This document shows, piece after piece, positions 87 through 57,500 of a stretch of DNA of 64,000 nt. This DNA is from Marinicella sp. (lineage in GTDB: Bacteria; Pseudomonadota; Gammaproteobacteria; Xanthomonadales; Marinicellaceae). Positions within the stretch are counted from its first letter, which is position 1, and every line of letters begins with the position of its first letter. The position numbers and the translations under genes are program-made. The notes under the pieces were generated by a model that saw only the letters and a program-made list of their open reading frames with translations, searched no databases and had not been told where the DNA came from. The stretch covers positions 2,880,001 through 2,944,000 of the forward strand of contig OZ246001.1 of NCBI GenBank assembly GCA_965230295.1. The letters run 5' to 3'.

Positions 87-1676
87 TCATCCTTTAGATA
101 CAGCAAAGTCAAAACCATCTTTGTAAATAATATCCGGGTTGAGGTAAAACACCTCAAGTGCTGCTCCAGAGTCGATTTCATTATCAGCGGATTCATCACC
201 CGGTATGCCAATCAGTAAGGTGGGTCCAAGGTATCCATCACCATTGGTAAAGGAAAAACCAAAATTATCATCGGCTTGTTCGCCACTCAAAGAGCTGCTT
301 TCATTGAAATCCAGACCGGTTGCTATGCCAGGGATGATATAAACGATACCTGATTGGTTACCATTGAATGACTCGAATGGCACACCCACAATCACTTCTG
401 CCATTTGATTGACATCCAAGTCTGCTGTACTGACACTGAAACCAAACCAGTCATTAGTTTCTACAGAACCGGAAATGCCTGAAGTTTGTTGGCTGAAAGT
501 CAGACTACCTGTGCTTGTCAGCCCGGTCATTGAACCAGGCAGTAAATGTGCTGCGCCGGCGTCAACGATGTTGCCTATGTCTTCTAATGGGGTACCGATG
601 ATGAGGTCATCATGACCGTCACCATTGACATCACCTGTTGCCAAAGCATACCCAAAAACATCCAATGGTTCAGTGACTGCTCCGGTTATGTCGCTTTGTT
701 CCCAGATTTGATCATCGTTGATTAAACCCAACGAGTTGCCATAAATTACTTGGACTAAACCGGCAAATGTATCTCCACCAATGGTTTCATAAGGCACACC
801 AATGGCCAAATCATCATAGCCATTGTTGTTGAAATCACCTGCAGCTAAAGAAAATCCAAAAAAGTCATTGGTTTCACTGGTGCCAATGATGTTTGGGCTC
901 GATTGGCTTAGGCTGTCTCTGATGATGTGGCTCAGTCCCATGTTGGGTGTATTGACTTGTCCGCCGTAATAAATAAACACTGAACCTCCATTGTCCACGC
1001 CAGGAAAATTTTGACCAGGAGCACCGACCACCAAATCTGCAAACCCATCTTGGTTGAAATCTCCTGTGGTGAGTGATAAACCGAAGTTGGCAAATGCTTG
1101 TCTGTCAGTCCCCACTTGTGCATCGGCATCGGCATCAATGAATTGTCCTGTGACTGATATACCGTTGGCTGAGCCATAGTGAACATAAACGGCACCTGTG
1201 TCTTCAAATTCAACCATGGCTTGATTGATGAAGTTTTTAAAAGGGGCGCCGACTGCCAAATCATCAAAGCCATCGTTGTTATAGTCTCCAGTGGTTAAAC
1301 TGGTGCCAAATTCTTCACCTTCTTCTACAGCGCCACTGAGCAACAACATGCTGTCTGTATTGGTGATGCCATATTGTGCTCCATACATCACTATGATGGC
1401 ACCCGCGTCAGATAAAAAGAAGTTTCTTTTGGGGGCGCCAAAAACCACATCCATCAACCCATCTCCATTGAAATCGCCACTGGCCATTGTGTGACCAAAT
1501 CGATCACCCGGTTGTGTTTCATTGGCTCCTGCATTGGCTTGATCTATGTCCCATAAGGCACCAAAAAATGGATCAATGGTTTTTGTTGCCAATTCACCTG
1601 GAATGGATTGTGCAGTGGATTGTTCGCCAGATAAACACATGGCTGCAAAAAATGCTCCCGCAATAAATTTATTCAT
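87..1676 (-). CDS. Secreted FG-GAP repeat (integrin-alpha-like beta-propeller) protein
   Basis: About seven FG...GDFNxDGxxDLxxGAP repeats. Start moved from 1757 to ATG 1676 (GGAG RBS, signal peptide MNKFIAGAFFAAMCLS). Ends ...DIIYKDGFDFAVSKG. Confidence 0.9.
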   Translation of the reverse strand: MNKFIAGAFFAAMCLSGEQSTAQSIPGELATKTIDPFFGALWDIDQANAGANETQPGDRFGHTMASGDFNGDGLMDVVFGAPKRNFFLSDAGAIIVMYGAQYGITNTDSMLLLSGAVEEGEEFGTSLTTGDYNNDGFDDLAVGAPFKNFINQAMVEFEDTGAVYVHYGSANGISVTGQFIDADADAQVGTDRQAFANFGLSLTTGDFNQDGFADLVVGAPGQNFPGVDNGGSVFIYYGGQVNTPNMGLSHIIRDSLSQSSPNIIGTSETNDFFGFSLAAGDFNNNGYDDLAIGVPYETIGGDTFAGLVQVIYGNSLGLINDDQIWEQSDITGAVTEPLDVFGYALATGDVNGDGHDDLIIGTPLEDIGNIVDAGAAHLLPGSMTGLTSTGSLTFSQQTSGISGSVETNDWFGFSVSTADLDVNQMAEVIVGVPFESFNGNQSGIVYIIPGIATGLDFNESSSLSGEQADDNFGFSFTNGDGYLGPTLLIGIPGDESADNEIDSGAALEVFYLNPDIIYKDGFDFAVSKG

Positions 1677-1904
1677 ATAAGACTCCTGTTTTAGTGTGAA
1701 TAACTTAGAAGATGCATGTTTGTTGCTAATCGCACATGAGAAGTGGCAATTAATCATGCACAGGTGTCACGTTGAAAAAATTTCAGTGGGCTGTTCAAAG
1801 CATCATTGAAGTATCAGTCTGGATACATACACTGGGTATATAGCGAATCATGAGGGTGATGGATCAGTAAGGGCACAGTTTTCTGAAGCAAAGAAGCGTG
1901 TGAA

Positions 1905-4831: not shown

Positions 4832-4907
4832 AATTAATGTCTGCTATTGAACAGACAATCATTATACACGTTAGCGTTGTCAGCTGCAGTGATCAGGAAT
4901 ACAAAGG

Positions 4908-5983: not shown

Positions 5984-5986
5984 TGA

Positions 5987-6763: not shown

Positions 6764-6941
6764 AGGTCATACCTCATTAATTAATTTTAGGGTTAAATCA
6801 TTATAGCAATGATTCATTCATGCGCTCAAGTCATTATATGGGTGCCATTCGTCACGAATCAATCATTACTGGCTGCATTTTCTTGCTTCATCTGTAACTC
6901 TTTGGCCTTTCTTGCGTTTATCGGGTAACAGCTTTGTTACA

Positions 6942-8039: not shown

Positions 8040-8119
8040 GATTGATTGTCAGCAAAAATAGGAGTAGATTGTTACAGTATATGAATTATTTATCAAATGT
8101 TTTATCTGGGAGAAGAGAT

Positions 8120-8821: not shown

Positions 8822-8840
8822 TCAGCTGATTGAGTCAAAT

Positions 8841-8871
8841 AAAAAAGACCGATTGAATCGGTCTTTTTTTT
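8841..8871. terminator. Bidirectional rho-independent terminator
   Basis: AAAAAAGACCGATT-G-AATCGGTCTTTTTTTT between convergent genes. Confidence 0.9.
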
Positions 8872-10179: not shown

Positions 10180-10194
10180 ACGAGATTATATAGT

Positions 10195-37300: not shown

Positions 37301-38458
37301 TCGGTGGCCGTGTTGTCTGGTGATTCCGATGTGGATACGGGAGATACCTTGAGTGTCACGTCATGTTCCGCACCGAGCAATGGTACGGTGGTGCAAAACG
37401 GCAACAACTGTGATTTCACGCCCGGCCTGAATTTCAATGGCAGCGGAGGCTTCACTTATGCCATCAGCGACGGCAATGGTGGCAGCGACAGTGCCACGGT
37501 TTCAGTGACTGTGAACGCTGTGAATGACGATCCTGTGGCAGTCAACGACAATGCCAATACCAATGAAGACACCTTGGTATCGGTGGCTGTGCTGGCTGGT
37601 GACAGCGACCCGGATTCAGGCGATACCTTGAGTGTGACTTCATGTTCTGGTTCCAGCAACGGTACAGTGGTGCTCAATGGTAATAATTGTGACTACACAC
37701 CCAGCCTGAACTTCAACGGCACCGGTGGTTTCAGTTATGCCATCAGTGACGGCAATGGTGGCACCGACAGTGCCACGGTGACAGTATCGGTGGCAGCGGT
37801 TAACGATGATCCACTGGCGGTTAATGACAATGCCAATGCCAATGAAGATGGCGCTGTCTCAGTGGCGGTTTTGACTGGTGACAGTGATCCGGATAGTGGT
37901 GATACTTTGAGTGTAACTGCTTGTTCAGGCGCCAGTGATGGTTCAGTGGTACTCAACGGTAATAATTGTGATTTTACGCCGAGTTCGGATTTCAATGGCC
38001 AGGCCACATTTGATTACAGCATCAGCGATGGTAATGGTGGTTCAGACACCGCTTCGGTGACTGTTGATGTGGCTGCTGTAAATGATGAACCGAGCATGTC
38101 GGTGAATGATCAGGTATATGTCAGCTTGGCAGACATTGGCAGCCCGCCAGCACAAAACCTGGCTTGTCAATTTGACTTCGGTCCTGCCGACGAAGATGCC
38201 AGTCAGGCTGTTGCTGACATGATTGTCAGCATCACCAATGACCCTGACGGTATTTTGAGTTCAATCGATGTGGATAACAGCGGTGCTCTCAATTATACAT
38301 TTACCGGCAGTGCAGGGGTGGCAGAAGTGACTGTCTCGCTGCAAGATGATGGTGGCACCAGCAATGGTGGTGATGACACATCGGTGGCCTATACGTTCTT
38401 GGTCAATGTGCAGGATTACGTGTTCAGAAGTGACTTTGAAGCGCAAGTCTGTCCATAA
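34340..38458 (+). CDS. Large exported protein with an uncharacterised N-terminal domain and tandem cadherin-like (Big_9/tandem-95) repeats
   Basis: N-terminal hydrophobic leader; PADPHGAAGPNH...FDPKVLYD...RWGDY domain; NDxPxAxND...FSYAISDGNGGTD repeats; ends ...DYVFRSDFEAQVCP. Confidence 0.88.
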   Translation: MKIKVLILTSLIVFGVYELAPMIKPSKQTTESATLVAKPEWQELEPDEVINPLVPVVSPDTKGIVVDGITLQPQVRYNNLNPELAGQLSSEFTPTPKKRTGGYRYQKANPDEITQNHAKLDEGLPVTRSLVSSIDAGGQATNGVNTGFLFIPADPHGAAGPNHVVNVFNTSIEFYQTDGTANGSQSLQSFFAPLSPVNFTFDPKVLYDQYEQRFVVVTLERQDTAAGDPTNSSRVLVAVSDDANPNGTWFMHAINTNVNIGGTPSWFDYPGLAIDEEVIYLTGNQFTYGVSNSFQGVRLWAIQKTGFYSGGAATVVGSLDPFAGVSPNLPNTTQPAHTYGNAPAGLGTYLVSYSRINNGTSEFWQLIRLDNPLGVPSFTHQFINVGDIEPNAINGPPFPLAPQSGTALTLATNDPRALDAVWRDGQIFATATIESQSELGETSASWWVFDGVGGAAAFNDTGIIDGEDIAAGTFTFFPSIAVNADGGVGVGFSASAPSIFPSSYFAVRSPGDAAGTMRPSQLIRSGTDFYHRTFGGPSNRWGDYTSVAVDPNDECFWVYNKHAVNRSSGAASENGMYGTAFGEFCNQDPTAGNDSINVDEGATSTALVGGFTTVLNNDSDPDAADSIGAILVSGPADASSFNLNVNGTFSYTHNGDEAPTDSFTYNACDDGTPVKCDLATVNISVNPIDDDPTAVDDTATVDENTSNNTINVLTNDTDVDGGPLQVTGVTQPTNGTTSFTASNVSYTPDTDYCNDGVTTDDFDYTINGGSSATVEVTVTCQANQDPVANNDAVNTDEDVLVSVNVLANDNDPDAGDTLSVTSCSAPSNGTVVQNGNNCDFTPSLNFNGAGGFSYAISDGNGGTDTATVTVTVDPVNDDPVAVNDNANTNEDTLVSVAVLTGDSDVDTGDTLSVTSCSAPSNGTVVLNGNNCDFTPSLNFNGSGGFSYAISDGNGGTDTATVTVTVDAVNDDPVAVNDNATTDEDTLVSVAVLSGDSDVDTGDTLSVTSCSAPSNGTVVQNGNNCDFTPGLNFNGSGGFTYAISDGNGGSDSATVSVTVNAVNDDPVAVNDNANTNEDTLVSVAVLAGDSDPDSGDTLSVTSCSGSSNGTVVLNGNNCDYTPSLNFNGTGGFSYAISDGNGGTDSATVTVSVAAVNDDPLAVNDNANANEDGAVSVAVLTGDSDPDSGDTLSVTACSGASDGSVVLNGNNCDFTPSSDFNGQATFDYSISDGNGGSDTASVTVDVAAVNDEPSMSVNDQVYVSLADIGSPPAQNLACQFDFGPADEDASQAVADMIVSITNDPDGILSSIDVDNSGALNYTFTGSAGVAEVTVSLQDDGGTSNGGDDTSVAYTFLVNVQDYVFRSDFEAQVCP
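36686..38080 (+). repeat. Five intragenic 279-bp (93-aa) repeats
   Basis: NQDP/NDDP unit starts every 279 bp; two Cys per unit; many synonymous differences. Confidence 0.92.
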
Positions 38459-44393: not shown

Positions 44394-47300
44394 TCAGTTC
44401 AAAAATGACTCCAATTGTCTGGTGGTGGAACCGATGGTTCCAGGTAAATCACATTCAAACGTATCCTTGAATACGAACTGGTAAATCAAATCGCTGTCTT
44501 CAGCAACATTGTTTAACAGGTTAACATCAGTGGTACCTGCTGGCATATCAACTGAACTTTGTACATCAATAAAATCAAACAGCGAACCAGTGACCGTTGA
44601 GTCAAACAAATAGACTAATTGAGAACCAACTGGCAAGTTAACCAACTCATTGACCACATCTCCAGTGCCTGCGTTATCGTCACAAGAAGCCCCTCCAGTT
44701 TCCATGCATATCCAATCAGGTGTACTGATGTTTGGACTTAAAGTTGCATTAATCAAAGCACCGTTGATGTCGATGTTACCTGAGTTATTGATGGTTAATT
44801 CATACAACAACTGTTCATTTTGATCCACACCTTTAACACAGTTGGTGAAGAATATGGTTAAATCAGGACGGTAAGCAACGGTTGCAGTGGCAGGCCCTGA
44901 TACATTATTCGCTGTGTCAGTTTGTGTGGCTGTTGCCGTTTCACCATCTACGGGTTCTGGGCTTAAGTCACAAGTCCAATTTCCACTGCCATCAACCAAA
45001 GCTGAACAACTGGCACCGGAAGTGGTGCTGACATTAACAGTGGCGCCAATTTCACCTGTACCAGAGACGGTTAAGCCATTACTCGGGTCGTTGATGGTTG
45101 GCGGATTGGGAACCGTATCATCAAATGTGAAGCTGGCAGGCGTGGTGTTGGTGTTGCCAGCAACGTCTTGTATGGTGGCAACCTCATCCCCATCAACACC
45201 ATTCTGTCCAGCAGTGGCGTTACAAATCACTACATTGCCAGATTCAAGTCCACAACTGTAGCCAGGTATGGTCAAAGTGGCATCCGTTTCAACACCTGTA
45301 CAAGTGGCTGTTACGGGTGTGCCATTTCCGGCAGGATCAGGTGTGACAGTACAAACTGGTGCAGCTGGTGGCGTGGTATCTATGCCACCAACTTCTGTGG
45401 TTGGAGGCGAGGTGTTGCCCGCTGGATCTGTTTGGTCAGCCGTGATGTCTTCGCCATCTACTGGAGGACCAACCAAGGTGCACGACCAGGTGCCATCAGG
45501 TTGAACCAATGCCATACAGGTGGATCCTGATGGGGTGGTGACAGTTACGGTTGCTCCAGGTTCACCTGTCCCGGTCACAGGTGCGCCATTGGTTGGAACA
45601 TTGATGACTGGAGCCAGAGGCGGTAATGTATCAACTTCGATAGTTACAGTACTGGCCGGTGATGTATTGCCCACCTCATCTGTGGCTGTGGCAGTCAACT
45701 GATTGGACCCATCTTGTAAGGCTGGGCTGATTTGACATGACCAATCTCCATTGACATCGGCTTGTACTGTACAGCTTTCACCCAAAGGTCCGGTCACATC
45801 CACTGTAGAAAATGGCTCAGCAGTACCAACTACCACTGGATCATTGATGTTAGTGATGGCCCCATCCAGAGGGGCAGTGATGACTGGTGCAGCCGGTGCT
45901 TGTGCATCTACAGTGACCTCAGTAGGCAAGGATGAGTTGCCGTTGTCATCGGTGACAAACACACTGAGCACATCGTTGTGTGCAGGTGCTGGGATCACTG
46001 GTGAACAAGAGAAGTTACCTGCTGCATCAGCTGTGGTGGTACACAGGACATTGCCCTGATTATCCAACACCGTGATGTCGCCATTGGGGATGGTGGTACC
46101 CGTAACAGGATCACCATCGGTTGGGTTCACTTGAGGTGCAGGAGGTGCTGTGACATTCGGATCAAACACCGTGGTGGTTACCGGCGGTGATGCCAACAAG
46201 CCAGATTGAGTGGCCGTTGCACTGATCACATTGCCAGTGGCCGGTACTGGTGATGGTGAGTCACACACCCAGTTACCTGAAGCATCGACCGTTACAGGTG
46301 CGTTGCTACAAGTGATGCCAGCCAAATCAATGGTTGAATCAGGTACCGCAGAACCGGTGATTTCAGTGGCACCATCGGCCACAGGATCAATGGTTGGGCT
46401 GACTGATTGGGTCGCTGAATCGGCCACTGTGGTGCTGGTTGGGCCAGACTCGTTACCCGCGGCATCGGTGGCCGTTGCCGTGATCAGGGTGCCCGGAACC
46501 AAAGGTGCAGAGGTGGTCACATCACAAGACCACACCCCGTTCACATCAGCAAACACAGGGGCGTTGTCACACACGATGCCACTCAAAGTGATCAGAGCAC
46601 CAGGTTCTGCCAAACCAGTGACTGGGTTGGTGTTTTCATCAACCGGATCAATGGTCGGTGCGGTTGGTGCGGTGGTATCCAACACCAATTCACCGGATGT
46701 GGCATCTGGAGGAGAGGTGTTGCCGGCCGCATCAGTGGCTGTGACTGTGACATCATTGACACCGTTCAGATCCAGGTTCAAAGTACCTGAGTCTGGAGTG
46801 GCAGAAGCCAGATCCAACGACCAGTTGCCTGAACCGTCGGCAGTGGTGGTGTAAGTCGCACCACCAACCACGATGGTCACGGTGCTATCAGCTTCGGCTG
46901 TACCGTTAAGCACTGGAGTCGGGTTGTTGGTGGTTTGTGAAACAACCGTTGGCGCAGCCGGTGCTTGTGCATCTACAGTGACCTCAGTAGGCAAGGATGA
47001 GTTGCCGTTGTCATCGGTGACAAACACACTGAGCACATCGTTGTGTGCAGGTGCTGGGATCACTGGTGAACAAGAGAAGTTACCTGCTGCATCAGCTGTG
47101 GTGGTACACAGGACATTGCCCTGATTATCCAACACCGTGATGTCGCCATTGGGGATGGTGGTACCCGTAACAGGATCACCATCGGTTGGGTTCACTTGAG
47201 GTGCAGGAGGTGCTGTGACATTCGGATCAAACACCGTGGTGGTTACCGGCGGTGATGCCAACAAGCCAGATTGAGTGGCCGTTGCACTGATCACATTGCC

Positions 47301-50300
47301 AGTGGCCGGTACTGGTGATGGTGAGTCACACACCCAGTTACCTGAAGCATCGGCCGTTACAGGTGCGTTGCTACAAGTGATGCCAGCCAAATCAATGGTT
47401 GAATCAGGTACCGCAGAACCGGTGATTTCAGTGGCACCATCGGCCACAGGATCAATGGTTGGGCTGACTGATTGGGTCGCTGAATCGGCCACTGTGGTGC
47501 TGGTTGGGCCAGACTCGTTACCCGCGGCATCGGTGGCCGTTGCCGTGATCAGGGTGCCCGGAACCAAAGGTGCAGAGGTGGTCACATCACAAGACCACAC
47601 CCCGTTCACATCAGCAAACACAGGGGCGTTGTCACACACGATGCCACTCAAAGTGATCAGAGCACCAGGTTCTGCCAAACCAGTGACTGGGTTGGTGTTT
47701 TCATCAACCGGATCAATGGTCGGTGCGGTTGGTGCGGTGGTATCCAACACCAATTCACCGGATGTGGCATCTGGAGGAGAGGTGTTGCCGGCCGCATCAG
47801 TGGCTGTGACTGTGACATCATTGACACCGTTCAGATCCAGGTTCAAAGTACCTGAGTCTGGAGTGGCAGAAGCCAGATCCAACGACCAGTTGCCTGAACC
47901 GTCGGCAGTGGTGGTGTAAGTCGCACCACCAACCACGATGGTCACGGTGCTATCAGCTTCGGCTGTACCGTTAAGCACTGGAGTCGGGTTGTTGGTGGTT
48001 TGTGAAACAACCGTTGGCGCAGCCGGTGCTTGTGCATCTACAGTGACCTCAGTAGGCAAGGATGAGTTGCCGTTGTCATCGGTGACAAACACACTGAGCA
48101 CATCGTTGTGTGCAGGTGCTGGGATCACTGGTGAACAAGAGAAGTTACCTGCTGCATCAGCTGTGGTGGCACACAGGACATTGCCCTGATTATCCAACAC
48201 CGTGATGTCGCCATTGGGGATGGTGGTACCCGTAACAGGATCACCATCGGTTGGGTTCACTTGAGGTGCAGGAGGTGCTGTGACATTCGGATCAAACACC
48301 GTGGTGGTTACCGGCGGTGATGCCAACAAGCCAGATTGAGTGGCCGTTGCACTGATCACATTGCCAGTGGCCGGTACTGGTGATGGTGAGTCACACACCC
48401 AGTTACCTGAAGCATCGGCCGTTACAGGTGCGTTGCTACAAGTGATGCCAGCCAAATCAATGGTTGAATCAGGTACCGCAGAACCGGTGATTTCAGTGGC
48501 ACCATCGGCCACAGGATCAATGGTTGGGCTGACTGATTGGGTCGCTGAATCGGCCACTGTGGTGCTGGTTGGGCCAGACTCGTTACCCGCGGCATCGGTG
48601 GCCGTTGCCGTGATCAGGGTGCCCGGAACCAAAGGTGCAGAGGTGGTCACATCACAAGACCACACCCCGTTCACATCAGCAAACACAGGGGCGTTGTCAC
48701 ACACGATGCCACTCAAAGTGATCAGAGCACCAGGTTCTGCCAAACCAGTGACTGGGTTGGTGTTTTCATCAACCGGATCAATGGTCGGTGCGGTTGGTGC
48801 GGTGGTATCCAACACCAATTCACCGGATGTGGCATCTGGAGGAGAGGTGTTGCCGGCCGCATCAGTGGCTGTGACTGTGACATCATTGACACCGTTCAGA
48901 TCCAGGTTCAAAGTACCTGAGTCTGGAGTGGCAGAAGCCAGATCCAACGACCAGTTGCCTGAACCGTCGGCAGTGGTGGTGTAAGTCGCACCACCAACCA
49001 CGATGGTCACGGTGCTATCAGCTTCGGCTGTACCGTTAAGCACTGGAGTCGGGTTGTTGGTGGTTTGTGAAACAACCGTTGGTGCAGCCGGTGCGCTCAA
49101 ATCAATGCCACCTGCAACTGTGGTTGGAGGAGACGTATTGCCTGCTGCATCTTCTTGGGTTGCAGTGATGTCTTCACCGTCCACAGGTGTTGGAGACAAG
49201 GTACAAGACCAAGTGCCATCCAGTTGAACTGTTGCTGTACAAGTGGCGCCCGATGGTGTGGTTACCGTAACGGTGGCACCTGGTTCGCCAGTACCGGTTA
49301 CCGGTGCACCTGTAGTAGGTGCATTGATCACCGGAGCTGGAGGTGCATCATTATCCAAAGTGAAGTTGGCAGGCGTGGTTGCTGTGTTACCAGCCGCATC
49401 AGTTGCGGTGGCCGTTTCATCACCGTCAACACCAGCTGTGCCGACAGTACCGGTACAAGACCAGTTACCAGAACCATTGTCGGTACAGGCATAGCCTGGA
49501 ATGGTTAATGTAGCACCGGCTTCAACGCCAGTACAGTTGGCTGTAACGGCTGTGCCGTTGTTGGCAGGATCTGGAGTTACGGTACAGGTTCCGATGGTGG
49601 GCGGGGTGTTATCTAAAGTAAATGTAGCAGGAGTGGTGGCAGTATTGCCAGCAGCATCTGTGGCCGTGGCGGTTTCATCACCGTCAACACCAGCCGTACC
49701 CACGGTACCGGTACAAGACCAGTTGCCTGAGCCGTTATCGGTACAGGCATAGCCTGGGATGGTTAATGTAGAACCGGCTTCAACACCCGTACAGTTGGCT
49801 GTAACGGCTGTGCCGTTGTTGGCAGGATCTGGAGTAACCGTACAAGTGCCAATCGAAGGAGGCGTATTATCCAGTGTGAAATTAGCTGGAGTGGTGGCTG
49901 TGTTGCCAGCGGCATCGGTAGCTGTGGCGGTTTCATCACCGTCAACACCAGCTGTGCCGACAGTACCGGTACAAGACCAGTTACCAGAACCATTGTCGGT
50001 ACAGGCATAGCCTGGAATGGTTAATGTAGCACCGGCTTCAACGCCAGTACAGTTGGCTGTAACGGCTGTGCCGTTGTTGGCAGGATCTGGAGTTACGGTA
50101 CAGGTTCCGATGGTGGGCGGGGTGTTATCTAAAGTAAATGTAGCAGGAGTGGTGGCAGTATTGCCAGCAGTATCTGTGGCCGTGGCCGTTTCATCACCGT
50201 CAACACCAGCTGTGCCCACGGTACCGGTACAAGACCAGTTGCCTGAGCCATTGTCGGTACAGGCATAGCCTGGAATGGTTAATGTAGCACCGGCTTCAAC

Positions 50301-53300
50301 GCCAGTACAGTTGGCTGTAACGGCTGTGCCGTTGTTGGCAGGATCTGGAGTAACCGTACAAGTTCCGATCGCTGGTGGCGTATTATCCAGTGTGAAATTA
50401 GCAGGAGTGGTGGCAGTATTGCCAGCAGTATCTGTGGCCGTGGCCGTTTCATCACCGTCAACACCAGCCGTACCCACGGTACCGGTACAAGACCAGTTGC
50501 CTGAGCCGTTATCGGTACAGGCATAGCCTGGAATGGTTAAGGTAGCACCGGCTTCCACACCGGTACAGTTGGCTGTAACAGCGGTGCCGTTGTTGGCAGG
50601 ATCTGGAGTTACGGTACAGGTTCCGATGGTGGGTGGGGTGTTGTCTAAGGTAAAGGTAGCAGGCGTTGTTGCTGTGTTGCCCGCGGCATCAGTTGCGGTG
50701 GCCGTTTCATCACCGTCAACACCAGCCGTACCCACGGTACCGGTACAAGACCAGTTGCCTGAGCCATTGTCGGTACAGGCATAGCCTGGGATGGTTAAGG
50801 TAGCACCACCTTCCACACCCGTACAGTTGGCCGTAACGGCAGTGCCATTATTGGCTGGGTCTGGAGTAACCGTACACGTACCAATCGAAGGCGGCGTGTT
50901 GTCCAATGTGAAATTAGCTGGAGTCGTTGCTGTGTTACCAGCCGCATCAGTTGCGGTGGCCGTTTCATCGCCATCAACACCAGCCGTACCCACGGTACCG
51001 GTACAAGACCAGTTGCCTGAGCCATTGTCGGTACAGGCATAGCCTGGAATGGTTAAGGTAGCACCCGCTTCAACACCCGTACAGTTGGCTGTAACAGCGG
51101 TGCCATTGTTGGCTGGATCTGGAGTTACGGTACACGTTCCAATCGCAGGAGGCGTATTATCCAGTGTGAAATTAGCAGGCGTTGTTGCTGTGTTGCCCGC
51201 GGCATCAGTTGCGGTGGCCGTTTCATCACCGTCAACACCAGCTGTGCCCACGGTACCGGTACAAGACCAGTTGCCTGAGCCGTTATCGGTACAGGCATAG
51301 CCTGGAATGGTTAAGGTAGCACCGGCTTCAACGCCAGTACAGTTGGCTGTAACGGCTGTGCCGTTGTTGGCAGGATCTGGAGTAACCGTACAAGTTCCGA
51401 TCGCAGGAGGCGTATTATCCAGTGTGAAATTAGCAGGCGTTGTTGCTGTGTTGCCCGCGGCATCAGTTGCGGTGGCCGTTTCATCGCCATCAACACCAGC
51501 CGTACCCACGGTACCGGTACAAGACCAGTTGCCTGAGCCATTGTCGGTACAGGCATAGCCTGGAATGGTTAAGGTAGCACCACCTTCCACACCCGTACAG
51601 TTGGCCGTAACGGCAGTGCCATTATTGGCTGGGTCTGGAGTAACCGTACACGTACCAATCGAAGGCGGCGTGTTGTCCAATGTGAAATTAGCTGGAGTCG
51701 TTGCTGTGTTACCAGCCGCATCAGTTGCGGTGGCCGTTTCATCGCCATCAACACCAGCCGTACCCACGGTACCGGTACAAGACCAGTTGCCTGAGCCATT
51801 GTCGGTACAGGCATAGCCTGGAATGGTTAAGGTAGCACCCGCTTCAACACCCGTACAGTTGGCTGTAACAGCGGTGCCATTGTTGGCTGGATCTGGAGTT
51901 ACGGTACAGGTTCCGATGGTGGGAGGTGTGATGTCATTAAGGGTTACCGTTGCCGTGTCTTGAAAGGTGAAATCAGTGGTGGGCAATTGGGTTGAGTTTG
52001 AGTTGATGGTGACAATATTGTCGATATCACCTGTGGGTGCTGCCGCATCAATTTGGGCTTGAAATCTCACCACAACTTGTTCACCTGGGGCAATTTCGCC
52101 ACCGTTGCTGTTATCAGCATTCAAACCGACTCGGAACACCACTTGATCGTTGCCGCTGTCATATTCAGCTGCATCATCACCAACTGTGTCAGTCAAACTA
52201 CCGGTTGGGCCGGCATCGGCGCTGACGATTTCCAATGAGTTTGGCACATAGGTCATGTTGGCAGGAATGGGGTCTGTAACAACGGTGTTGATGGCATCGT
52301 CGGAACCGTCATTGGTGAAACTGATGTCATAGGTGATCACATCGTTTCTGCCAATATCGCCGCCATTGTCATCGGTGGCGGTCTTTGTCAAAGATGAACT
52401 GAAGTCCGGTACATTGAGGTCGGTAACAAATGTTAAATAGTTCGGGTAATAGGAATCACCATTGGTCTGAAACTCAATGTTGGCTTCTATCTCTGAGTTG
52501 CCCCAAATGGCCAATGGAATGTCATGGAAATCTACGTCCATACCCAGTTGATTGACGTAGTTGGGCGTTTTGTTGGTGATTTGAGCGCCACTTTTGGTGA
52601 TCGAGCTGTTCCAAAAGTTATCAACTGGATTGATGCCAGTGGTGAACAAGTCAGTGCCTTCAAAACGGAATCGATCCCCTGAAATGTTTTGATCACCTTC
52701 CCAAACCAAGGCCCCGACAGATGCTGTGACGTCTCCTGATGCCGGTGTGAGCAATCCACCAATGGTCACTGCGACAGGCGTGGTACCCGTGACCCGTGCG
52801 GCCCCATCGTACAAAGCCAAGCGCCGGAATGGTAGTGTACTGTCTTCATAAACAACCACAATAGACCAGCCGCCATAAAATCCCAGCCCATCGGCACCGT
52901 TGTTGGCAGATAAACCACCAACGAAGTAAACACCTGAACCATTGGTTTGAACCATGGTGGTGATGTCTGCCCAGACTTGATAAGGTCTGTTGCCAGCAGA
53001 GCCTTGAGTTGAAAAATCATCTAAGTTGCCCGCGCCTACATTGATGCTGCTGTAACTACCGGCAAGTGGAGGCTTGATATTGATGGTACGTCGAGCGTTG
53101 GAACCACCACCACTGTCAGCAAATCGTCCACCCCAGTATAAACCGGCGTACAAGACATTACTGCCGGCTGGCAGCGTGAGGGTGGCGCTGGAGGAATTGG
53201 TAAAACCGCCAGGCACGTCTTCGTTGACATAGCGGGTTTGGATGTTGTTGTTGCCGTTAACGGTACCGCTTTGTCTATCGGCACAATCGGTTGTCGTTGC

Positions 53301-53456
53301 TTCATCACAAGTGATCAATACATTACCGATCAATTCAATGCCCCCATTGGTGTCAACACTGAATCGACTGGTGAAGTTACGGTCAATTTGGGCTTGAACC
53401 GAAGAAAAAACAAGTAAAAGGACAGCAAAAACGCTGTATTTGGATTTAACGCTCAT
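44394..53456 (-). CDS. Giant (about 3020 aa) Sec-exported adhesin-like protein: N-terminal head domain, DUF11 and many Cys-containing Ig-like repeats
   Basis: Signal peptide MSVKSKYSVFAVLLLVFSSVQA (ATG 53456); head with AGLYWGG and YGGWSIVVVYE; DUF11 (ITYDISFTN..VVTDPIP); T-D-x-A-G-N Ig repeats; ...QFVFKDTFEC near the C-terminus. Confidence 0.92.
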   Translation of the reverse strand: MSVKSKYSVFAVLLLVFSSVQAQIDRNFTSRFSVDTNGGIELIGNVLITCDEATTTDCADRQSGTVNGNNNIQTRYVNEDVPGGFTNSSSATLTLPAGSNVLYAGLYWGGRFADSGGGSNARRTINIKPPLAGSYSSINVGAGNLDDFSTQGSAGNRPYQVWADITTMVQTNGSGVYFVGGLSANNGADGLGFYGGWSIVVVYEDSTLPFRRLALYDGAARVTGTTPVAVTIGGLLTPASGDVTASVGALVWEGDQNISGDRFRFEGTDLFTTGINPVDNFWNSSITKSGAQITNKTPNYVNQLGMDVDFHDIPLAIWGNSEIEANIEFQTNGDSYYPNYLTFVTDLNVPDFSSSLTKTATDDNGGDIGRNDVITYDISFTNDGSDDAINTVVTDPIPANMTYVPNSLEIVSADAGPTGSLTDTVGDDAAEYDSGNDQVVFRVGLNADNSNGGEIAPGEQVVVRFQAQIDAAAPTGDIDNIVTINSNSTQLPTTDFTFQDTATVTLNDITPPTIGTCTVTPDPANNGTAVTANCTGVEAGATLTIPGYACTDNGSGNWSCTGTVGTAGVDGDETATATDAAGNTATTPANFTLDNTPPSIGTCTVTPDPANNGTAVTANCTGVEGGATLTIPGYACTDNGSGNWSCTGTVGTAGVDGDETATATDAAGNTATTPANFTLDNTPPAIGTCTVTPDPANNGTAVTANCTGVEAGATLTIPGYACTDNGSGNWSCTGTVGTAGVDGDETATATDAAGNTATTPANFTLDNTPPAIGTCTVTPDPANNGTAVTANCTGVEAGATLTIPGYACTDNGSGNWSCTGTVGTAGVDGDETATATDAAGNTATTPANFTLDNTPPSIGTCTVTPDPANNGTAVTANCTGVEGGATLTIPGYACTDNGSGNWSCTGTVGTAGVDGDETATATDAAGNTATTPATFTLDNTPPTIGTCTVTPDPANNGTAVTANCTGVEAGATLTIPGYACTDNGSGNWSCTGTVGTAGVDGDETATATDTAGNTATTPANFTLDNTPPAIGTCTVTPDPANNGTAVTANCTGVEAGATLTIPGYACTDNGSGNWSCTGTVGTAGVDGDETATATDTAGNTATTPATFTLDNTPPTIGTCTVTPDPANNGTAVTANCTGVEAGATLTIPGYACTDNGSGNWSCTGTVGTAGVDGDETATATDAAGNTATTPANFTLDNTPPSIGTCTVTPDPANNGTAVTANCTGVEAGSTLTIPGYACTDNGSGNWSCTGTVGTAGVDGDETATATDAAGNTATTPATFTLDNTPPTIGTCTVTPDPANNGTAVTANCTGVEAGATLTIPGYACTDNGSGNWSCTGTVGTAGVDGDETATATDAAGNTATTPANFTLDNDAPPAPVINAPTTGAPVTGTGEPGATVTVTTPSGATCTATVQLDGTWSCTLSPTPVDGEDITATQEDAAGNTSPPTTVAGGIDLSAPAAPTVVSQTTNNPTPVLNGTAEADSTVTIVVGGATYTTTADGSGNWSLDLASATPDSGTLNLDLNGVNDVTVTATDAAGNTSPPDATSGELVLDTTAPTAPTIDPVDENTNPVTGLAEPGALITLSGIVCDNAPVFADVNGVWSCDVTTSAPLVPGTLITATATDAAGNESGPTSTTVADSATQSVSPTIDPVADGATEITGSAVPDSTIDLAGITCSNAPVTADASGNWVCDSPSPVPATGNVISATATQSGLLASPPVTTTVFDPNVTAPPAPQVNPTDGDPVTGTTIPNGDITVLDNQGNVLCATTADAAGNFSCSPVIPAPAHNDVLSVFVTDDNGNSSLPTEVTVDAQAPAAPTVVSQTTNNPTPVLNGTAEADSTVTIVVGGATYTTTADGSGNWSLDLASATPDSGTLNLDLNGVNDVTVTATDAAGNTSPPDATSGELVLDTTAPTAPTIDPVDENTNPVTGLAEPGALITLSGIVCDNAPVFADVNGVWSCDVTTSAPLVPGTLITATATDAAGNESGPTSTTVADSATQSVSPTIDPVADGATEITGSAVPDSTIDLAGITCSNAPVTADASGNWVCDSPSPVPATGNVISATATQSGLLASPPVTTTVFDPNVTAPPAPQVNPTDGDPVTGTTIPNGDITVLDNQGNVLCTTTADAAGNFSCSPVIPAPAHNDVLSVFVTDDNGNSSLPTEVTVDAQAPAAPTVVSQTTNNPTPVLNGTAEADSTVTIVVGGATYTTTADGSGNWSLDLASATPDSGTLNLDLNGVNDVTVTATDAAGNTSPPDATSGELVLDTTAPTAPTIDPVDENTNPVTGLAEPGALITLSGIVCDNAPVFADVNGVWSCDVTTSAPLVPGTLITATATDAAGNESGPTSTTVADSATQSVSPTIDPVADGATEITGSAVPDSTIDLAGITCSNAPVTVDASGNWVCDSPSPVPATGNVISATATQSGLLASPPVTTTVFDPNVTAPPAPQVNPTDGDPVTGTTIPNGDITVLDNQGNVLCTTTADAAGNFSCSPVIPAPAHNDVLSVFVTDDNGNSSLPTEVTVDAQAPAAPVITAPLDGAITNINDPVVVGTAEPFSTVDVTGPLGESCTVQADVNGDWSCQISPALQDGSNQLTATATDEVGNTSPASTVTIEVDTLPPLAPVINVPTNGAPVTGTGEPGATVTVTTPSGSTCMALVQPDGTWSCTLVGPPVDGEDITADQTDPAGNTSPPTTEVGGIDTTPPAAPVCTVTPDPAGNGTPVTATCTGVETDATLTIPGYSCGLESGNVVICNATAGQNGVDGDEVATIQDVAGNTNTTPASFTFDDTVPNPPTINDPSNGLTVSGTGEIGATVNVSTTSGASCSALVDGSGNWTCDLSPEPVDGETATATQTDTANNVSGPATATVAYRPDLTIFFTNCVKGVDQNEQLLYELTINNSGNIDINGALINATLSPNISTPDWICMETGGASCDDNAGTGDVVNELVNLPVGSQLVYLFDSTVTGSLFDFIDVQSSVDMPAGTTDVNLLNNVAEDSDLIYQFVFKDTFECDLPGTIGSTTRQLESFLN
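45900..49094 (-). repeat. Three near-identical intragenic 1065-bp (355-aa) repeats
   Basis: Antisense ORFs recur at 46210, 47275 and 48340; only about three nucleotide differences seen. Confidence 0.95.
49356..51935 (-). repeat. Ten intragenic 258-bp (86-aa) repeats, four Cys each
   Basis: D[IN]TPPxIGTCTVTPDPANNG...ATATD[AT]AGNTATTPA[NT]FTL x10, period 258. Confidence 0.95.
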
Positions 53457-53484
53457 AGACACACACACTATCTGTTGATTAATG

Positions 53485-53500
53485 TGTGATTTATATCACA
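53485..53500. promoter_or_regulatory. Perfect CRP/Clp-family binding box upstream of the giant adhesin gene
   Basis: TGTGA-TTTATA-TCACA; a second box with one mismatch, TGTGA-ACTAAT-TAACA, at 53536-53551. Confidence 0.65.
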
Positions 53501-53671
53501 GAAAATCTGAAAATAAAGGCTGTAAGTGGGAAAACTGTGAACTAATTAACAGTTTGTGACATTTGGTCAATATATATGGCACAAAGTTATAGCTAAGATG
53601 ACGTATCTTCAACTAATTTGACAAATCATGTCACTCAATAATAGAACAGTAAAATCAGTCAATTAAGTTGG

Positions 53672-54208
53672 TTACTTTACTTGTTGTGGTACCATCAGTA
53701 TGTCACTGGCTCTGTAACCTTCATCCACCGCTATGTTGACCAGTTTTTCTAACTCACGAGGATCAATTTGCGGTTTTCTGGCCATGATCCACAAGTAATC
53801 ACGTTTGGTTCTGCCGATGATGGTGTATTCATAGGCTGGATCAACATACACAATGATGAACTCTGATTTGAAGGGCCACAGGAATTGCATTTTCCATTCC
53901 GCATTGGATGGATTTTCAGTGACGACAAAACCGGTTGGGTTGTATTCTTTTTTGGGGCCGGTGAAGCTGTCTTTGTTGAAGCTGAATTGGGTGTCGATCA
54001 CTGTGTCTGACTTTTTGGTATAACTTTCTATGGCGTTATGTGCCCCTTTTTCAATGAAAGTGGGTATGTTGGCAATCACATACCAATCACCCATAAACAA
54101 ATCCAGATTGACCCGTTCAGCCATCCGGATGGGTGGTCCTTGGCGACAAGATTGGAATGCAAATATTGACACAAGCAACATGATTCCTAAACCGATGATT
54201 TTCTTCAT
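53672..54208 (-). CDS. blc: Bacterial lipocalin (Blc-like lipoprotein)
   Basis: Lipobox-like FQSC; F.GDWYVIA, QFLWPFK, YLWIMARKP. Confidence 0.9.
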   Translation of the reverse strand: MKKIIGLGIMLLVSIFAFQSCRQGPPIRMAERVNLDLFMGDWYVIANIPTFIEKGAHNAIESYTKKSDTVIDTQFSFNKDSFTGPKKEYNPTGFVVTENPSNAEWKMQFLWPFKSEFIIVYVDPAYEYTIIGRTKRDYLWIMARKPQIDPRELEKLVNIAVDEGYRASDILMVPQQVK

Positions 54209-54325
54209 TTGTATTCAACCTGAAAAATACCCATGTTAAATGCTGTGATGTGAAAATTGGGTCAAGCCATTGGCATAAGGAATGTCTTTAGGACTTCACT
54301 GAAATTGTTCCAAACAAAAGTGAAT

Positions 54326-54451
54326 GGAGACCACGGCGAACATAACTTGCTACCTCGCACGCACTACGACATTCAAATCGGGCTTCTTTATCTTCGATAA
54401 AACCGCCCAACTTTCATTGCCTGTGCTGGTCGAACTGTCCGACAGTTCTCC
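54326..54451. other. Structured intergenic element (candidate ncRNA or small palindromic repeat)
   Basis: Ends can pair (GGAGACCA...TGGTC..TCC); internal hairpins GGGC..TTTATC-TTC-GATAAA..GCCC and GAACTGT-CCG-ACAGTTC. Confidence 0.4.
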
Positions 54452-54462
54452 TAAGTTGAAGT

Positions 54463-54492
54463 ATAAAAGCGTTTCAATTGAAACGCTTTTAT
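54463..54492. terminator. Perfect 30-bp palindrome, likely terminator
   Basis: ATAAAAGCGTTTCAA|TTGAAACGCTTTTAT, 20 nt past the stop of the 1166-aa gene. Confidence 0.8.
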
Positions 54493-54511
54493 GTATCACA
54501 GGTGTCAACGA

Positions 54512-57500
54512 TCAGTTGTTTTCTAAACCGTCTTTAAAGATCAAGTCAGTTTCTATCATTGAAAAAGCATCCAGGTTATATTCGAAAACAGTTCCATCTG
54601 GATTGCCTACGATCACAGCACAGAATGCTGAAGACGTGTTGTCGGGTAGCAATAACCTGCTGCTGTTTGTTTGCCATTGTGGTGTTGGCGATGCGGGTAT
54701 AACAAACTCTTCCATGTGATTTGGACCAGTGCCATTGCCATTACAATCGGCATCCTCTAACAAGGCACAAATCAAAAACAACTCTAAATTGTTTGCTTGA
54801 GATGGAACGCCCAGTCCTGATACAGATAAAGTGTGGCTGCCGGGCGATTCAAAATTAATACACTGTTCTATGCCAAGTTGAGGTGAGTTGAGGCTTTTCA
54901 TGTATACGGATCCAGACAAGGAAGAATCATCAAAGTCAACAGTACTGTCAGCAACTATGATATCAGGATTTTGTCCAATAATATTGAATGTGTTGAGTGA
55001 AATAGGACTGTCACCACAATCATCCAAATATGCGTTTGTCATCAAATTGTCTGGTTCTACTCTGAACTGGCGCTTTAAGTTACCACCCGGGGTGCCATTC
55101 AGATCACCATCGATCGCATTGCCGGCTGCATCTGTGATGTCATCACAAACCATCAACACATATTGACCAGCCGTTAAAGGTGCATCTAAGGTTAATGTGG
55201 CATCCGGGTTTGTCGGGGTACCTCCTGTGGTGAACGTATTGATGTTAATGAAACTGTCATCACCCATTACACTGTCACAAGATAAGGTTTGCAAATCTTG
55301 ATCTAATCCAGTATCGATGAGGGCGTAATTCAGGTTGTCATCGACCCCAATGAGCCCAGGGTTGTCATCCTGAAATGAAACCACGATTGCAGAAATTTGA
55401 TCATTATTTTGGCTACAAGACAAAATTTCTGTGATAGAAGGGTTGGCATCGATCAAGGTCACAACCGGAATGATTTGATCAACTGGTGTCAACTCCGTAT
55501 CGGCATCATTGTCGATGGCGTTAAAGGCAGACAAGGTAGCGGTGTTTGACAATTCGGTCACGCCTGGATCCAGGCTCTCATCCACCTTAACCGCAAAGAA
55601 GACGGTGTCTTTACCAGAAAGACCAGGTAAACCACCGATGTCATAGGTACAGGTTGAACCTGCTGAATTGTCCGGCACGCAAGCCCATCCAGCGGTACTG
55701 CCGGGGGGATAGAATGTGGTGTTGTCAGGAACCGTTTCTGTGATGAGGGCATTCAAAGCATCCCGATCCCCTTCATTGAAATTAATGAGGGTGTAGTTGA
55801 TGACTTTGCCCAGTGCTGCGGTAACGCCTCCATCGGTTTTAACAATCCTCAAATCCACTTCAGCATCAATGGGCGTGGTGTCCTGAGCATTCGCTGCAGT
55901 GGCATTGCTGGCATCCATCACCACCGTGTTGGTCAATTGAGAAAAAATACCGGGTACCGGGGTGTTGAGCGTCAATGCAAAATCTGCTGAACCGTTTGTG
56001 CCACCGCCCACAGTGCCTAAGTCAAAGGTACAAGTACTGCCAGCTGTGTTGTCAGGTAAACATACCCATCCTGCCGTACTGGCAGCCGCATCGAATACAG
56101 TCTCTGTCAAGACCGTTTCACTCAATGTGGCGCTGTCAGCATCCTGATCACCTGTGTTGCCATAATCAATCTGATAAACCACTGTGGAACCGGGTGTTAG
56201 GCTGATGTCGCCATCGGTTTTACTGACACTCAAAACAGCTGCCGATGTAACTGGTGTTGAATCTGATGCCATGTCATCGCTGGCATTGTCAGCACTCAGC
56301 GTAACGCTGTTACTTATCTGTGTGGTACCGGCAGGTACTGAGCTGATGATCTGAACATCGAAAGTGGTGGAAAAATTTGTTCCTGCCAGATTGCTTGGCA
56401 AAGTCGTACACGTAGATCCCGCGCTATTGTCGGGCAAGCAAGTCCAATCGAAGGGTGCGGTTGGTACATAGTTGGTATTGGTTGGTACCACTTCCGTTAA
56501 AACGGCATTACTGGCCACTTGATTACCTGTGTTGGTGGCGACGATGTCGTAGGTAATTGTGTCACCAGGAACGGCATTGATTAAATCATTGTCTGTTTTG
56601 GTGACTGATAAGACTGCAGCTGAGGTGATGGGGGTGGTGTCAGCTGCCATGACATCATTGATGGCGTTGTTGGCACCCAATGTCACGCTGTTGCTGACAG
56701 CTGTTACGCCGACGCTGACATAATCATCAACCTGGACCGCGAAGGTGGCTGAATCTGAACCACCAGGTCCGAGTTCAGCGGGTGTCAAAGTACAAGTGGA
56801 TCCTGCCATATTATCAGGCAAACAAGCCCATCCAACCGTGCTGCTGCCAGGTAAAAAAGTGGTCTCAGCAGGTACGGTTTCGGTTAAGGTAATTCCAGAT
56901 GTGGCTCCTGCACCTGCTGCATTGGCATAATTCAATGTGTAAGTGATGGTGCCACCAGGTGCTGTATTGGTCACATCACCGTCAGATTTGGTGATGGACA
57001 ATTCAGGTCCGGGCAAAACTTCAATGCCGGCATATCCATTGGTTTGGACCAGACTGGCATTTTCAATGTCGACGTTGGTGCTGGACTCATTAATCAGGTC
57101 GATGGTATACATGCTCCATTTGTTGGCATTGGGACCAGTCGAAGGGCGTCCGAAGAAAAAATATTGACTCGATTGGTAATTCAGGGCCGATAAGCCACTG
57201 GCAGTGGTGATTGGATCGCCAAAATCAATTTCAATGTTGGTGTTGACTTCAGGCTCCCCGCCATCAGAAATATCTCCTTCAATTTTTGCCAAGCTGCGAG
57301 CGCCTCCACCCGGGCTATAAAGCACCCAAAGCGCATCACTGGATTGGTCCCATTCGAGACCAAAAATATTGCTGGGAGTGAAATCGCCCCAGAAATCATC
57401 CAGAATGAGTGAAAAGTGTTCGTCAGTATTGGCAGTTGAAATGACATACAATTCGCCGTCACCGATGAAAAATGCGCGTTGTCCGGTCGAGTCACCAGTC

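Follow-up and report, generated by a model that had tools for sequence, protein, structure and literature searches.

The window, by which we mean the whole 64-kb stretch of DNA that was analysed, encodes four proteins that match different domain models and share a 9-residue motif at or near the C-terminus (Table 1). In the case of the FG-GAP protein, the likely start within the ORF is an internal Met, which in the translation opens the leader MNKFIAGAFFAAMCLSG. The positions of the four motifs and their distances from the stop codon, as given in the first-pass annotation, were all reproduced in the translations, and its statements that the four proteins have hydrophobic N-terminal leaders and no match to barrel, RTX, T9SS-CTD or OmpA models also held. 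The motif of the 3024-aa protein has the lowest score of the four, and the best C-terminal score with the same weight matrix among the other 35 crude genes of the window was -0.6 or lower.

Table 1. Tag instances and their host proteins (window coordinates), and genes of the second T2SS set (genome coordinates).
Feature	Coordinates	Strand	Details
Tag instance DIIYKDGFD	108..134	-	6 residues before stop; weight-matrix score 21.1 bits
FG-GAP repeat protein, 556-aa ORF	87..1757	-	Pfam FG-GAP 1.4e-58
Tag instance DYVFRSDFE, followed by AQVCP	38414..38440	+	5 aa from end; score 19.1 bits
1372-aa protein, seven cadherin-like/Big_9 'tandem-95' repeats, hydrophobic N-terminus	34340..38458	+	Domain models
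Tag instance QFVFKDTFE, weak, near-terminal	44454..44480	-	19 residues before stop; score 10.0 bits
3024-aa Ig-repeat (Big_6/Big_13) adhesin-like protein, Sec leader	44394..53468	-	Domain models
Tag instance DLIFKDGLE, followed by NN	54521..54547	-	2 aa from end; score 23.0 bits
1166-aa DUF11-repeat protein, Sec leader	54512..58012	-	Domain models
T2SS set 2, gspC-D-E-F	genome 654-660 kb
T2SS set 2, gspG-H-I-J-K	genome 2608-2611 kb
Set-2 gspC, candidate reader	genome 658963-659829		Pfam T2SSC 3e-16 and PDZ_2 3.7e-07

The abundance of the motif was studied in the whole 4.0-Mb genome of this marine, non-pathogenic Marinicella-like bacterium. When the regular expression of the first-pass annotation was run on its 12,181 ORFs of at least 60 aa, 87 matches were found, compared with about 2 expected by chance on a rough estimate from amino-acid frequencies. 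The motif was the very end of the protein in 51 matches and was followed by 1-19 residues in a further 31, in such a way that 82 of the 87 lie within 20 residues of the C-terminus, as had been anticipated, and 5 are internal. For a 9-position weight matrix, the 49 strict members ending exactly in the motif served as the training set, which makes the matrix partly circular; at 14 bits or more it detected 133 matches among 1,177,386 nine-mers, of which 68 are terminal, 45 lie 1-5 aa and 8 lie 6-20 aa before the end, and 12 are internal. This gives 121 tagged proteins, compared with 4 matches on reversed sequences. At 10 bits or more, the genome contains 134 terminal and 21 internal matches. The consensus is D-[LV]-I-F-x-[DN]-[GD]-F-[ED], at the C-terminus or a few residues from it, and in 53 of the 121 tagged proteins, all four window proteins among them, the motif is followed by 1-12 or more residues. 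Among the training tails, 49 in number, the last two residues are [F/L]-[E/D], the final E or D being present in 49/49 by construction of the regular expression. In the crude proteome FE is the commonest C-terminal dipeptide (55/3241) and FD the third (37/3241). A few internal and tandem copies of the tag exist.

The proteins that carry the tail were compared with the rest of the proteome. With a crude home-made signal-peptide detector whose background rate is 30%, leader-like N-termini were called in 63 of 80 tagged proteins and in 943 of 3161 untagged ones (Fisher p = 7e-19), in line with the enrichment on leader-bearing proteins that had been proposed. Most of the 17 tagged proteins missed by the detector have leaders when inspected by eye, so that nearly all tagged proteins appear to be Sec-exported, with one Tat-like. 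Their bodies include proteases and FG-GAP, beta-helix, Ig/cadherin-repeat and choice-of-anchor proteins. Choice-of-anchor Q was found in 7/73 scanned tagged proteins and choice-of-anchor I in 1/73; these families owe their name to the different sorting tails that they bear in different lineages. A loose-variant member of 3682 aa was also found, and cargo of this size, or of the 3024 aa seen in the window, is unusual for a T2SS. The 73 scanned proteins gave 58 Pfam families, and in their alignment conservation was limited to the tail columns, with none upstream; the tail is not the last strand of a shared domain, an outcome that the first-pass annotation had named as a refutation of its reading. 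At the DNA level, the flanks of the tag contain 0.11 and 0.08 bits per position and the synonymous codons vary, so selection acts on the peptide. These data confirm that exported proteins of this genome share a C-terminal tail, and exclude chance as its origin. No known family model for the tail was found, nor a published description in the literature searched, which covered the main texts of non-subscription journals.

The taxonomic range was surveyed in 201 genomes of the order with a DNA pattern made of the tag plus a stop codon, which was present in 92 of them; the reversed pattern gave 0 matches in each of the 201. The distribution is patchy: one family (f1) has the tag in 26/27 genomes, with 6-53 matches each, and another (f2) in 0/28. 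When the tail was sought without the stop codon in 5 tag-free genomes there were 0 matches, so it is not hidden internally there. Abundance is very high in Marinicellaceae and moderate in relatives of Dokdonella and Rudaea. Among the matches listed (at least 80 loci), the tag-carrying genera and families are Marinicella, Dokdonella, Rudaea, Rhodanobacteraceae, Aquimonas, Ahniella and Pseudolysobacter, which bears out the statement of the first-pass annotation that similar tails occur in Xanthomonadales-related genomes. From these loci, again among the matches listed, 92 complete tagged ORFs were obtained, 59 of them leader-like with the crude detector. Judging from the matches listed in a scan of the whole collection, on which the range outside the order rests, the tail is apparently confined to lineages of Lysobacterales.

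The same genome encodes two T2SS sets. PDZ scans matched the set-2 GspC and found nothing in the cluster of set 1. The set-2 protein has the make-up of a GspC, namely an N-terminal TM helix, an HR (T2SSC) domain and a C-terminal PDZ domain, and its gene lies beside gspD/E/F; one or more of the adjoining ORFs (627, 495 and 405 aa) encode a secretin. Its profile matches the OutC, EpsC and PulC chains in the PDB, and its Marinicella homologues carry the names T2SS protein C or N.

The presence of the tag tracks this second T2SS with a PDZ-bearing GspC. In a hand tally of 200 genomes, in which related genomes are not independent, 76 genomes had both the tag and a PDZ-type GspC, 91 had neither, 15 had the tag only and 18 had GspC only. 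Both features vary together within narrow groups as well: of the 27 genomes of family f12, the 7 with the tag are also the 7 with GspC, and in genus g42 one genome (G109) has both and another (G094) neither. On closer search the disagreement lessened in 7 of the 33 discordant genomes. A profile search found an HR+PDZ GspC in all 5 of the 'tag only' genomes re-searched (from the 15) and in none of 5 tag-free genomes, and both 'GspC only' genomes of family f6 contained 5 relaxed tags each, compared with 0 control matches; G100, of that family, had only 1 relaxed match. For the T2SS, named in the first-pass annotation as a possible secretion machine, the comparison of genomes is supportive, and the support concerns the second system, the one of PDZ type. 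The comparison covered four PDZ candidates and one T2SS-1 control, and some other gene could track the tag as well as gspC, or better.

The other candidates compared were rejected. The first (Xps-like) T2SS does not discriminate, with GspL in 196/201 genomes, including 24/28 of the tag-free family f2. A 2xPDZ protein (L126), whose gene follows an ECF sigma/anti-sigma pair, gave cross-matches in 140/201 genomes (12/28 in f2 and 20/27 in f8) and none in the tag-rich G162 and G196. The search for an Asp-protease+PDZ protein (L124) gave nothing in G024, G065 or G087, and a PDZ+alpha/beta-hydrolase protein (L123) was found only in G024.

Taken as a whole, the tail is very probably a genuine sorting or secretion tag, and the first-pass reading, in which a secretion machine recognises a soluble sorting tag at the C-terminus, is supported, its function being what we infer from the sequence comparisons. 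In the mechanism that we propose, the cargo would be exported to the periplasm and would fold there with its tail left free; the PDZ domain of the set-2 GspC would bind the free tail as a class IV ligand, and this binding would recruit unrelated cargo to the set-2 secretin for passage through the outer membrane. The ends of the tails agree with such a ligand, with an aromatic second-to-last and an acidic last residue, and 68 of the 121 tagged proteins end exactly in the motif. The other 53 have trailing residues, to which a reader of the free carboxylate would be blind unless the tails are trimmed or the motif is bound internally. A predicted complex of residues 186-288 of GspC, its PDZ domain, with the 40 C-terminal residues of a protein bearing a canonical tag scored 0.02 against a mark of 0.32 (38-row alignment, this pair alone), a score that bears on binding in neither direction. 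On balance, the proposal that the tag is a portable signal routing Sec-exported cargo through the GspC PDZ of the second T2SS is one that could equally well prove right or wrong, and for that PDZ domain as the reader we lean slightly to the doubtful side.

A genuine sorting or retention tag could have another reader, such as a chaperone of the periplasm, a factor that loads vesicles, or a surface or outer-membrane scaffold onto which it docks by strand addition, and the link with the T2SS would then be indirect, for example through a shared secretome-rich lifestyle. The evidence on position, leaders and cargo fits such a reader as well as it fits GspC; the 53 tags that are not exactly terminal suit strand addition better than carboxylate capture, many of the cargos are repeat proteins of adhesin-like type, whose expected place is the cell surface, and the 18 genomes with GspC and no strict tag are a point against the PDZ-GspC reader. 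However, the three other PDZ proteins failed the phyletic test and no candidate receptor was identified, and the co-variation of tag and gspC within f12 and g42 would have to be a coincidence, so that we consider a different reader unlikely, if the strongest of the alternatives.

Two explanations dispense with sorting. The tail could be a periplasmic proteostasis signal, either an acidic cap against tail-specific proteases or a degron or handle for Prc, a tricorn-like protease or DegP/Q. The genome does have genes for Prc, DegP/Q/S, a tricorn-like protease of family S41 and a PDZ-bearing M61 peptidase, Prc prefers apolar C-termini in E. coli, a preference also stated in a preprint, and the last residue of the tail is acidic almost without variation, a regularity fixed by construction of the regular expression. 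But an acidic end alone would protect, which makes the conserved D-x-I-F ... F pattern superfluous, and such proteases are widespread and presumably occur in the tag-free families too, so they would leave the patchiness of the tag unexplained; this role is improbable. Even less credible, to the point of being very improbable, is a tail with no sorting role at all, which could be a lineage-specific structural or calcium-binding cap, in agreement with its several acidic residues, or the remnant of a recombining gene-end cassette, in agreement with the few internal and tandem copies. Since neither the DNA flanks nor the synonymous positions are conserved, it is not a mobile DNA cassette, and its restriction to leader-bearing proteins, its place at the extreme C-terminus of unrelated folds and its retention across several families point to selection for a trans-acting reader.

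How the T2SS chooses its folded substrates is a long-standing question, and to our knowledge no linear T2SS secretion signal is known. The tail described here is short, defined in sequence and extremely abundant, and its candidate reader comes and goes with it across genomes. It may tentatively be put forward, with more doubt than confidence, as the first linear, transplantable T2SS secretion signal, a 9-residue class IV-type PDZ ligand for GspC carried by about 4% of the proteome and served by a second T2SS dedicated to it, both in Marinicellaceae and in several further lineages of Lysobacterales. Whatever its reader, the tag could help to predict the secretomes of Marinicella, Dokdonella, Rudaea and their relatives, and is a candidate for engineered secretion; even with another reader, it would be a new class of sorting tail beside PEP-CTERM, GlyGly-CTERM and the T9SS CTD.

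The tail was compared with known C-terminal signals. A T1SS/RTX system, whose substrates lack a Sec leader and have a C-terminal signal, often together with GGxGxD nonapeptides, does not fit, given the leaders on the four window proteins and on 63/80 tagged proteins and the lack of any RTX model match. The T9SS C-terminal domain of Bacteroidota is likewise a proteome-wide C-terminal label on leader-bearing hydrolases and giant adhesins. It is a folded beta-sandwich domain of roughly 70-100 residues, whereas the conserved part here is just 9 residues, and T9SS CTD models were found neither in the four window proteins nor among the 25 commonest families of the 73 scanned proteins. The OMP beta-signal and the Y-x-F-COOH ends that activate DegS/DegP through their PDZ domains are terminal aromatic ends of beta-barrel proteins. 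They resemble the tail as C-terminal strands containing aromatic residues that are read in the periplasm, partly by PDZ domains; however, they end in an aromatic residue on barrels, whereas the motif closes with E or D and sits on soluble bodies, and barrel domains were detected neither in the four window proteins nor among the 25 commonest Pfam families of the 73.

Closer in logic are GlyGly-CTERM/rhombosortase (V. cholerae VesB), PEP-CTERM, MYXO-CTERM and IPTL-CTERM, in which a short homologous tail is also found on many unrelated Sec-exported proteases and adhesins of a single genome. GlyGly-CTERM cargo exits through the T2SS, and body domains that bear PEP-CTERM-type tags elsewhere (choice-of-anchor, tandem-95) are shared by proteins tagged here. 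These tags combine a motif with a transmembrane helix and a basic cluster, and undergo processing by a membrane sortase. The present tails, in contrast, are 9 soluble acidic/aromatic residues followed by 0-19 more with no hydrophobic stretch, which sets them apart from the GlyGly/PEP-CTERM type, and -CTERM sorting-domain models matched no tail, either in the four window proteins or among the 25 commonest families of the 73.

With regard to the proposed reader, class IV PDZ ligands have the form -X-aromatic-[D/E]-COOH, and binding to internal motifs is described for some PDZ domains (PMC4006718). The 68 exact-terminal tails end alike, in [G/D/S]-F-[E/D]-COOH. That scheme was drawn up for eukaryotic domains; here D-x-I-F extends past the usual ligand of 4-5 residues and 53/121 tags are not terminal. 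A precedent is the EpsC PDZ domain of V. cholerae, which is required for one substrate only, VesB, in a dependence that is transferable; the signal of VesB lies in a folded Ig-like domain (PMC12369372). There, the PDZ domain of a GspC picks out part of the T2SS cargo by a transferable signal, as would be the case in the system proposed here; the VesB signal belongs to one substrate, whereas the putative signal of this genome is a linear 9-residue peptide on about 120 substrates.

The first-pass annotation had proposed that a nine-residue C-terminal motif of the D-x-I-F-x-D-G-F-E type (the tag) marks exported proteins, with a proteome scan as its check. For this, its regular expression was run against the full set of 12,181 ORFs (60 aa or longer) of the genome, a single 4,008,074-bp contig with 44% G+C that holds the window, and 87 matches were found (51 exactly terminal, 31 with 1–19 residues behind and 5 internal), around 2 being the rough chance expectation from residue frequencies. 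The aligned tails give the consensus D-[LV]-I-F-x-[DN]-[GD]-F-[ED], and no conservation was detected upstream of them. A weight matrix trained on the 49 members with an exactly terminal tail in a crude set of 3241 genes was used to score 1,177,386 nine-mers, and at 14 bits or more it produced 133 matches (68 terminal, 45 at 1–5 residues from the end, 8 at 6–20 and 12 internal), with 4 in the reversed-sequence control. This gives 121 tagged proteins, 3.7% of the crude gene set, a total that is approximate because the matrix counts the members that trained it. A looser regular expression, independent of the matrix, added around 45 variant tails, and FE and FD rank first and third among the C-terminal dipeptides of the gene set.

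The four large ORFs of the window translate as previously described, with the nine-residue patterns exactly where they had been placed and hydrophobic N-terminal leaders in all four, that of the 556-aa ORF beginning after an internal Met. Their bodies do differ (FG-GAP repeats, cadherin-like/Big_9 'tandem-95', Big_6/Big_13 Ig repeats and DUF11 repeats), and Pfam and NCBIfam models for barrel, RTX, T9SS-CTD and OmpA domains had no match in them, so that the first-pass claims on both points hold. The motifs score 21.1, 19.1, 10.0 and 23.0 bits, in window order, and the other 35 crude genes there reach -0.6 at most; the copy of the 3024-aa protein is the least certain because of its 10.0-bit score. 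This protein contains around ten near-identical Cys-containing repeats of about 107 aa and three near-identical super-repeats of about 355 aa, in a region with a G+C of 0.51–0.55 vs 0.44 for the genome.

Coordinates of the tagged proteins, secretion genes and related features
Feature	Sequence	Position (strand)	Detail
556-aa protein	window	87-1757 (-)	6 residues between motif and stop
1372-aa protein	window	34340-38458 (+)	5 residues
3024-aa protein	window	44394-53468 (-)	19 residues
1166-aa protein	window	54512-58012 (-)	2 residues
Post-tag extensions	window	38441-38455; 44397-44453	
Tagged paralogue	genome	495996-497468 (+)	490 aa
ECF sigma factor, anti-sigma factor, periplasmic 2xPDZ protein	genome	617266-619584 (+)	in a row
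T2SS set 2	genome	654-660 kb	gspC(PDZ)-D-E-F
T2SS set 2	genome	2608-2611 kb	G-H-I-J-K; L, M genes not located
Untagged paralogue	genome	855496-856917 (-)	473 aa
T2SS set 1	genome	857-868 kb	complete E-F-G-H-I-J-K-L-M-(N/C)-D
Tandem double tag	genome	1123089-1124372 (-)	
Tag plus long extension	genome	1421560-1424421 (+); 3172793-3178705 (+)	
Tagged cluster	genome, outside window	3,786,000-3,861,000	at least 13 tagged genes

The expected enrichment on leader-bearing proteins was found with a crude detector of 30% background rate, 63/80 strict-tag proteins (those matching the regular expression) being leader-like vs 943/3161 others (odds ratio 8.7, p = 7e-19). Most of the 17 missed also have leaders by eye. 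A Tat-like leader was seen on one tagged protein and a lipobox-like leader on another. Among 73 strict-tag proteins of 150–1400 aa outside the window (9/82 were excluded by these criteria), 58 Pfam families were detected, such as FG-GAP (12 proteins), beta-helix (4), GSDH, Big_9, LTD and DUF11 (3 each), and subtilase, M28, reprolysin-like and LRR (2 each). NCBIfam models matched choice-of-anchor Q (7) and I (1), and myxosortase-, rhombosortase- and T9SS-dependent M36 (5, 5 and 2); we do not call the latter M36 enzymes, because a window protein's match of that kind covers the repeat region and not the peptidase domain. Choice-of-anchor families owe their name to bearing different sorting tails in different lineages, and in this genome they bear the nine-residue tail. 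No -CTERM sorting model fell on the tails, either among all matches of the four proteins of the window or among the 25 families matched most often by the 73. Many genes of the dense tagged cluster encode FG-GAP-type paralogues of about 530 aa with similar leaders. Elsewhere, a tagged and an untagged paralogue share the N-terminal motif GEVLIYPYY, the untagged one having the set-1 secretin and a lipoprotein of 144 aa as neighbours.

Selection on the tail acts at the peptide level, because the DNA flanks of the 49 exact-terminal tails are low in information (0.11 bits/position over 30 bases upstream, 0.08 over 40 downstream), third codon positions vary (e.g., GAT 32/GAC 13, TTT 36/TTC 11) and each of the three stop codons is used; the tails are not copies of a repeated DNA element. 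Cys is present in 9/31 post-tag extensions (e.g., CI, CN, CFKRF, AQVCP, CDLPG..., SGDTSAWSASCP), which may point to a longer form of the tail, as its remnant or as a link to it. Tandem double tags end a protein of this genome (...PIIFKSGFEGDLIFATGFEGPV...) and one of an uncultured Marinicella (locus L077, ...DLIFKNGFESDIIFKDGFE). In two further proteins the tag is followed by a similar extension of about 85–90 aa terminating in a DxDGDG-type acidic motif, which could represent the tag plus an added module. In many lineages (loci L004, L010, L013, L017, L021, L022 and others) the tag is directly preceded by a '...CD[IV]GA[FY]E...' motif, with which a beta-helix/choice-of-anchor Q-type domain presumably ends.

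The range of the tag was studied with a degenerate DNA pattern of tail plus stop codon, which matched 34 times in this genome, in 35/41 relatives and in 92/201 genomes that were drawn from across the order and are at least 90% complete; the reversed pattern gave 0 matches in every genome searched, and the tail was absent from internal positions in five tag-free genomes. With one genome per GTDB species, at least 120 stretches matched, and the 80 loci listed comprise Marinicella/Marinicellaceae (14), Dokdonella (16), Rudaea (5), Rhodanobacteraceae (6), Lysobacterales (7), Lysobacteraceae (2), Aquimonas (2), Ahniella, Pseudolysobacter and a Xanthomonas-labelled MAG (1 each), MAGs labelled Alcanivoracaceae (6) and unclassified proteobacterial MAGs (19), with no further named order among the matches listed. 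At 120 of these loci, 125 tails terminate ORFs whose ends are unrelated to one another. The crude detector called 59/92 complete tagged ORFs leader-like, but it is handicapped by over-long ORF starts in high-GC genomes.

The confinement of the tail to the protein end suggests a C-terminus-binding module. The PDZ proteins of the genome are DegP, DegQ, DegS, RseP, Prc, a tricorn-like protease, an M61 peptidase, PDZ+hydrolase, Asp-protease+PDZ and 2xPDZ proteins, and one GspC; DegP, DegS and RseP were assigned solely by the length of the ORF and its number of PDZ domains. Three secretins are encoded, PilQ and two GspD-type; PDZ scans of the genome detected no such domain in the cluster of T2SS set 1, and the proposed reader, the set-2 GspC, is a bona fide GspC. 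Tagged cargo would be exported by Sec (rarely Tat) and fold in the periplasm, where the PDZ domain of this GspC would capture the exposed tail and the cargo would be handed to the set-2 secretin. A tail ending in X-Phe-Glu/Asp-COOH has the class IV PDZ-ligand form, as described in PMC4006718. [quoted passage not shown] Against the PDZ reading stand the trailing residues on 53/121 tails, including all four window copies; among PDZ domains, some can bind an internal motif as well (PMC4006718). The giant size of some cargos is a weak point of the T2SS reading.

Tag (tail-plus-stop pattern) and set-2 GspC by coded family, in genomes
Family	Tag	Set-2 GspC
f1	26/27 (6-53 matches each)	27/27
f2	0/28	0/28
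f3	7/7	6/7
f4	22/27	16/27
f5	2/2	2/2
f6	0/2	2/2
f7	4/27	11/27
f8	2/27	2/27
f9	7/10	8/10
f11	14/16	13/16
f12	7/27	7/27

Among the candidate readers, the 2xPDZ protein, also used as a control, does not follow the tag, and the Asp-protease+PDZ and PDZ+hydrolase proteins failed the distribution test. The row of ECF sigma, anti-sigma and 2xPDZ genes could be an envelope sensor, by analogy with DegS/RseA. The set-2 GspC, searched at E <= 1e-8 in the same 200 genomes as the tag tally, passes this test, in such a way that a hand tally gave both in 76 genomes, tag only in 15, GspC only in 18 and neither in 91. Its homologues bear names from Marinicella, which belongs to Lysobacterales. Agreement was found in 27/30 genera listed; in f12 both occur in the same seven genomes, and genus g42 has one genome with both and one (G094) with neither, its GspC absence being confirmed. 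With a profile built from 38 sequences, an HR+PDZ GspC was found in 5/5 re-tested 'tag only' genomes and 0/5 tag-free genomes. Relaxed tails (F-x-[DN]-[DGE]-F-[DE]-stop) numbered 5 in each of the two f6 'GspC only' genomes vs 0 control matches, 4 in G154 vs 2, and 1 each in G100 and G067. As a further control, set-1 GspL was found in 196/201 genomes. The co-occurrence is thus a lead with real support, short of proof because related genomes are non-independent and few candidates were tested.

No model of the tail was found in NCBIfam or Pfam, and no published description was found in a literature search covering material other than supplements and subscription journals. If the PDZ–T2SS reading is true, the tail would represent the first linear signal for a T2SS. 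It resembles PEP-CTERM, GlyGly-CTERM and the T9SS CTD in being one homologous tail on many unrelated exported proteins, but lacks the TM helix and basic cluster that define the first two and the folded CTD that defines T9SS cargo. The leaders of tagged proteins set them apart from T1SS/RTX cargo, and the acidic end of the tail differs from the aromatic end of the OMP beta-signal. As a class, the tail probably belongs with C-terminal sorting tags.
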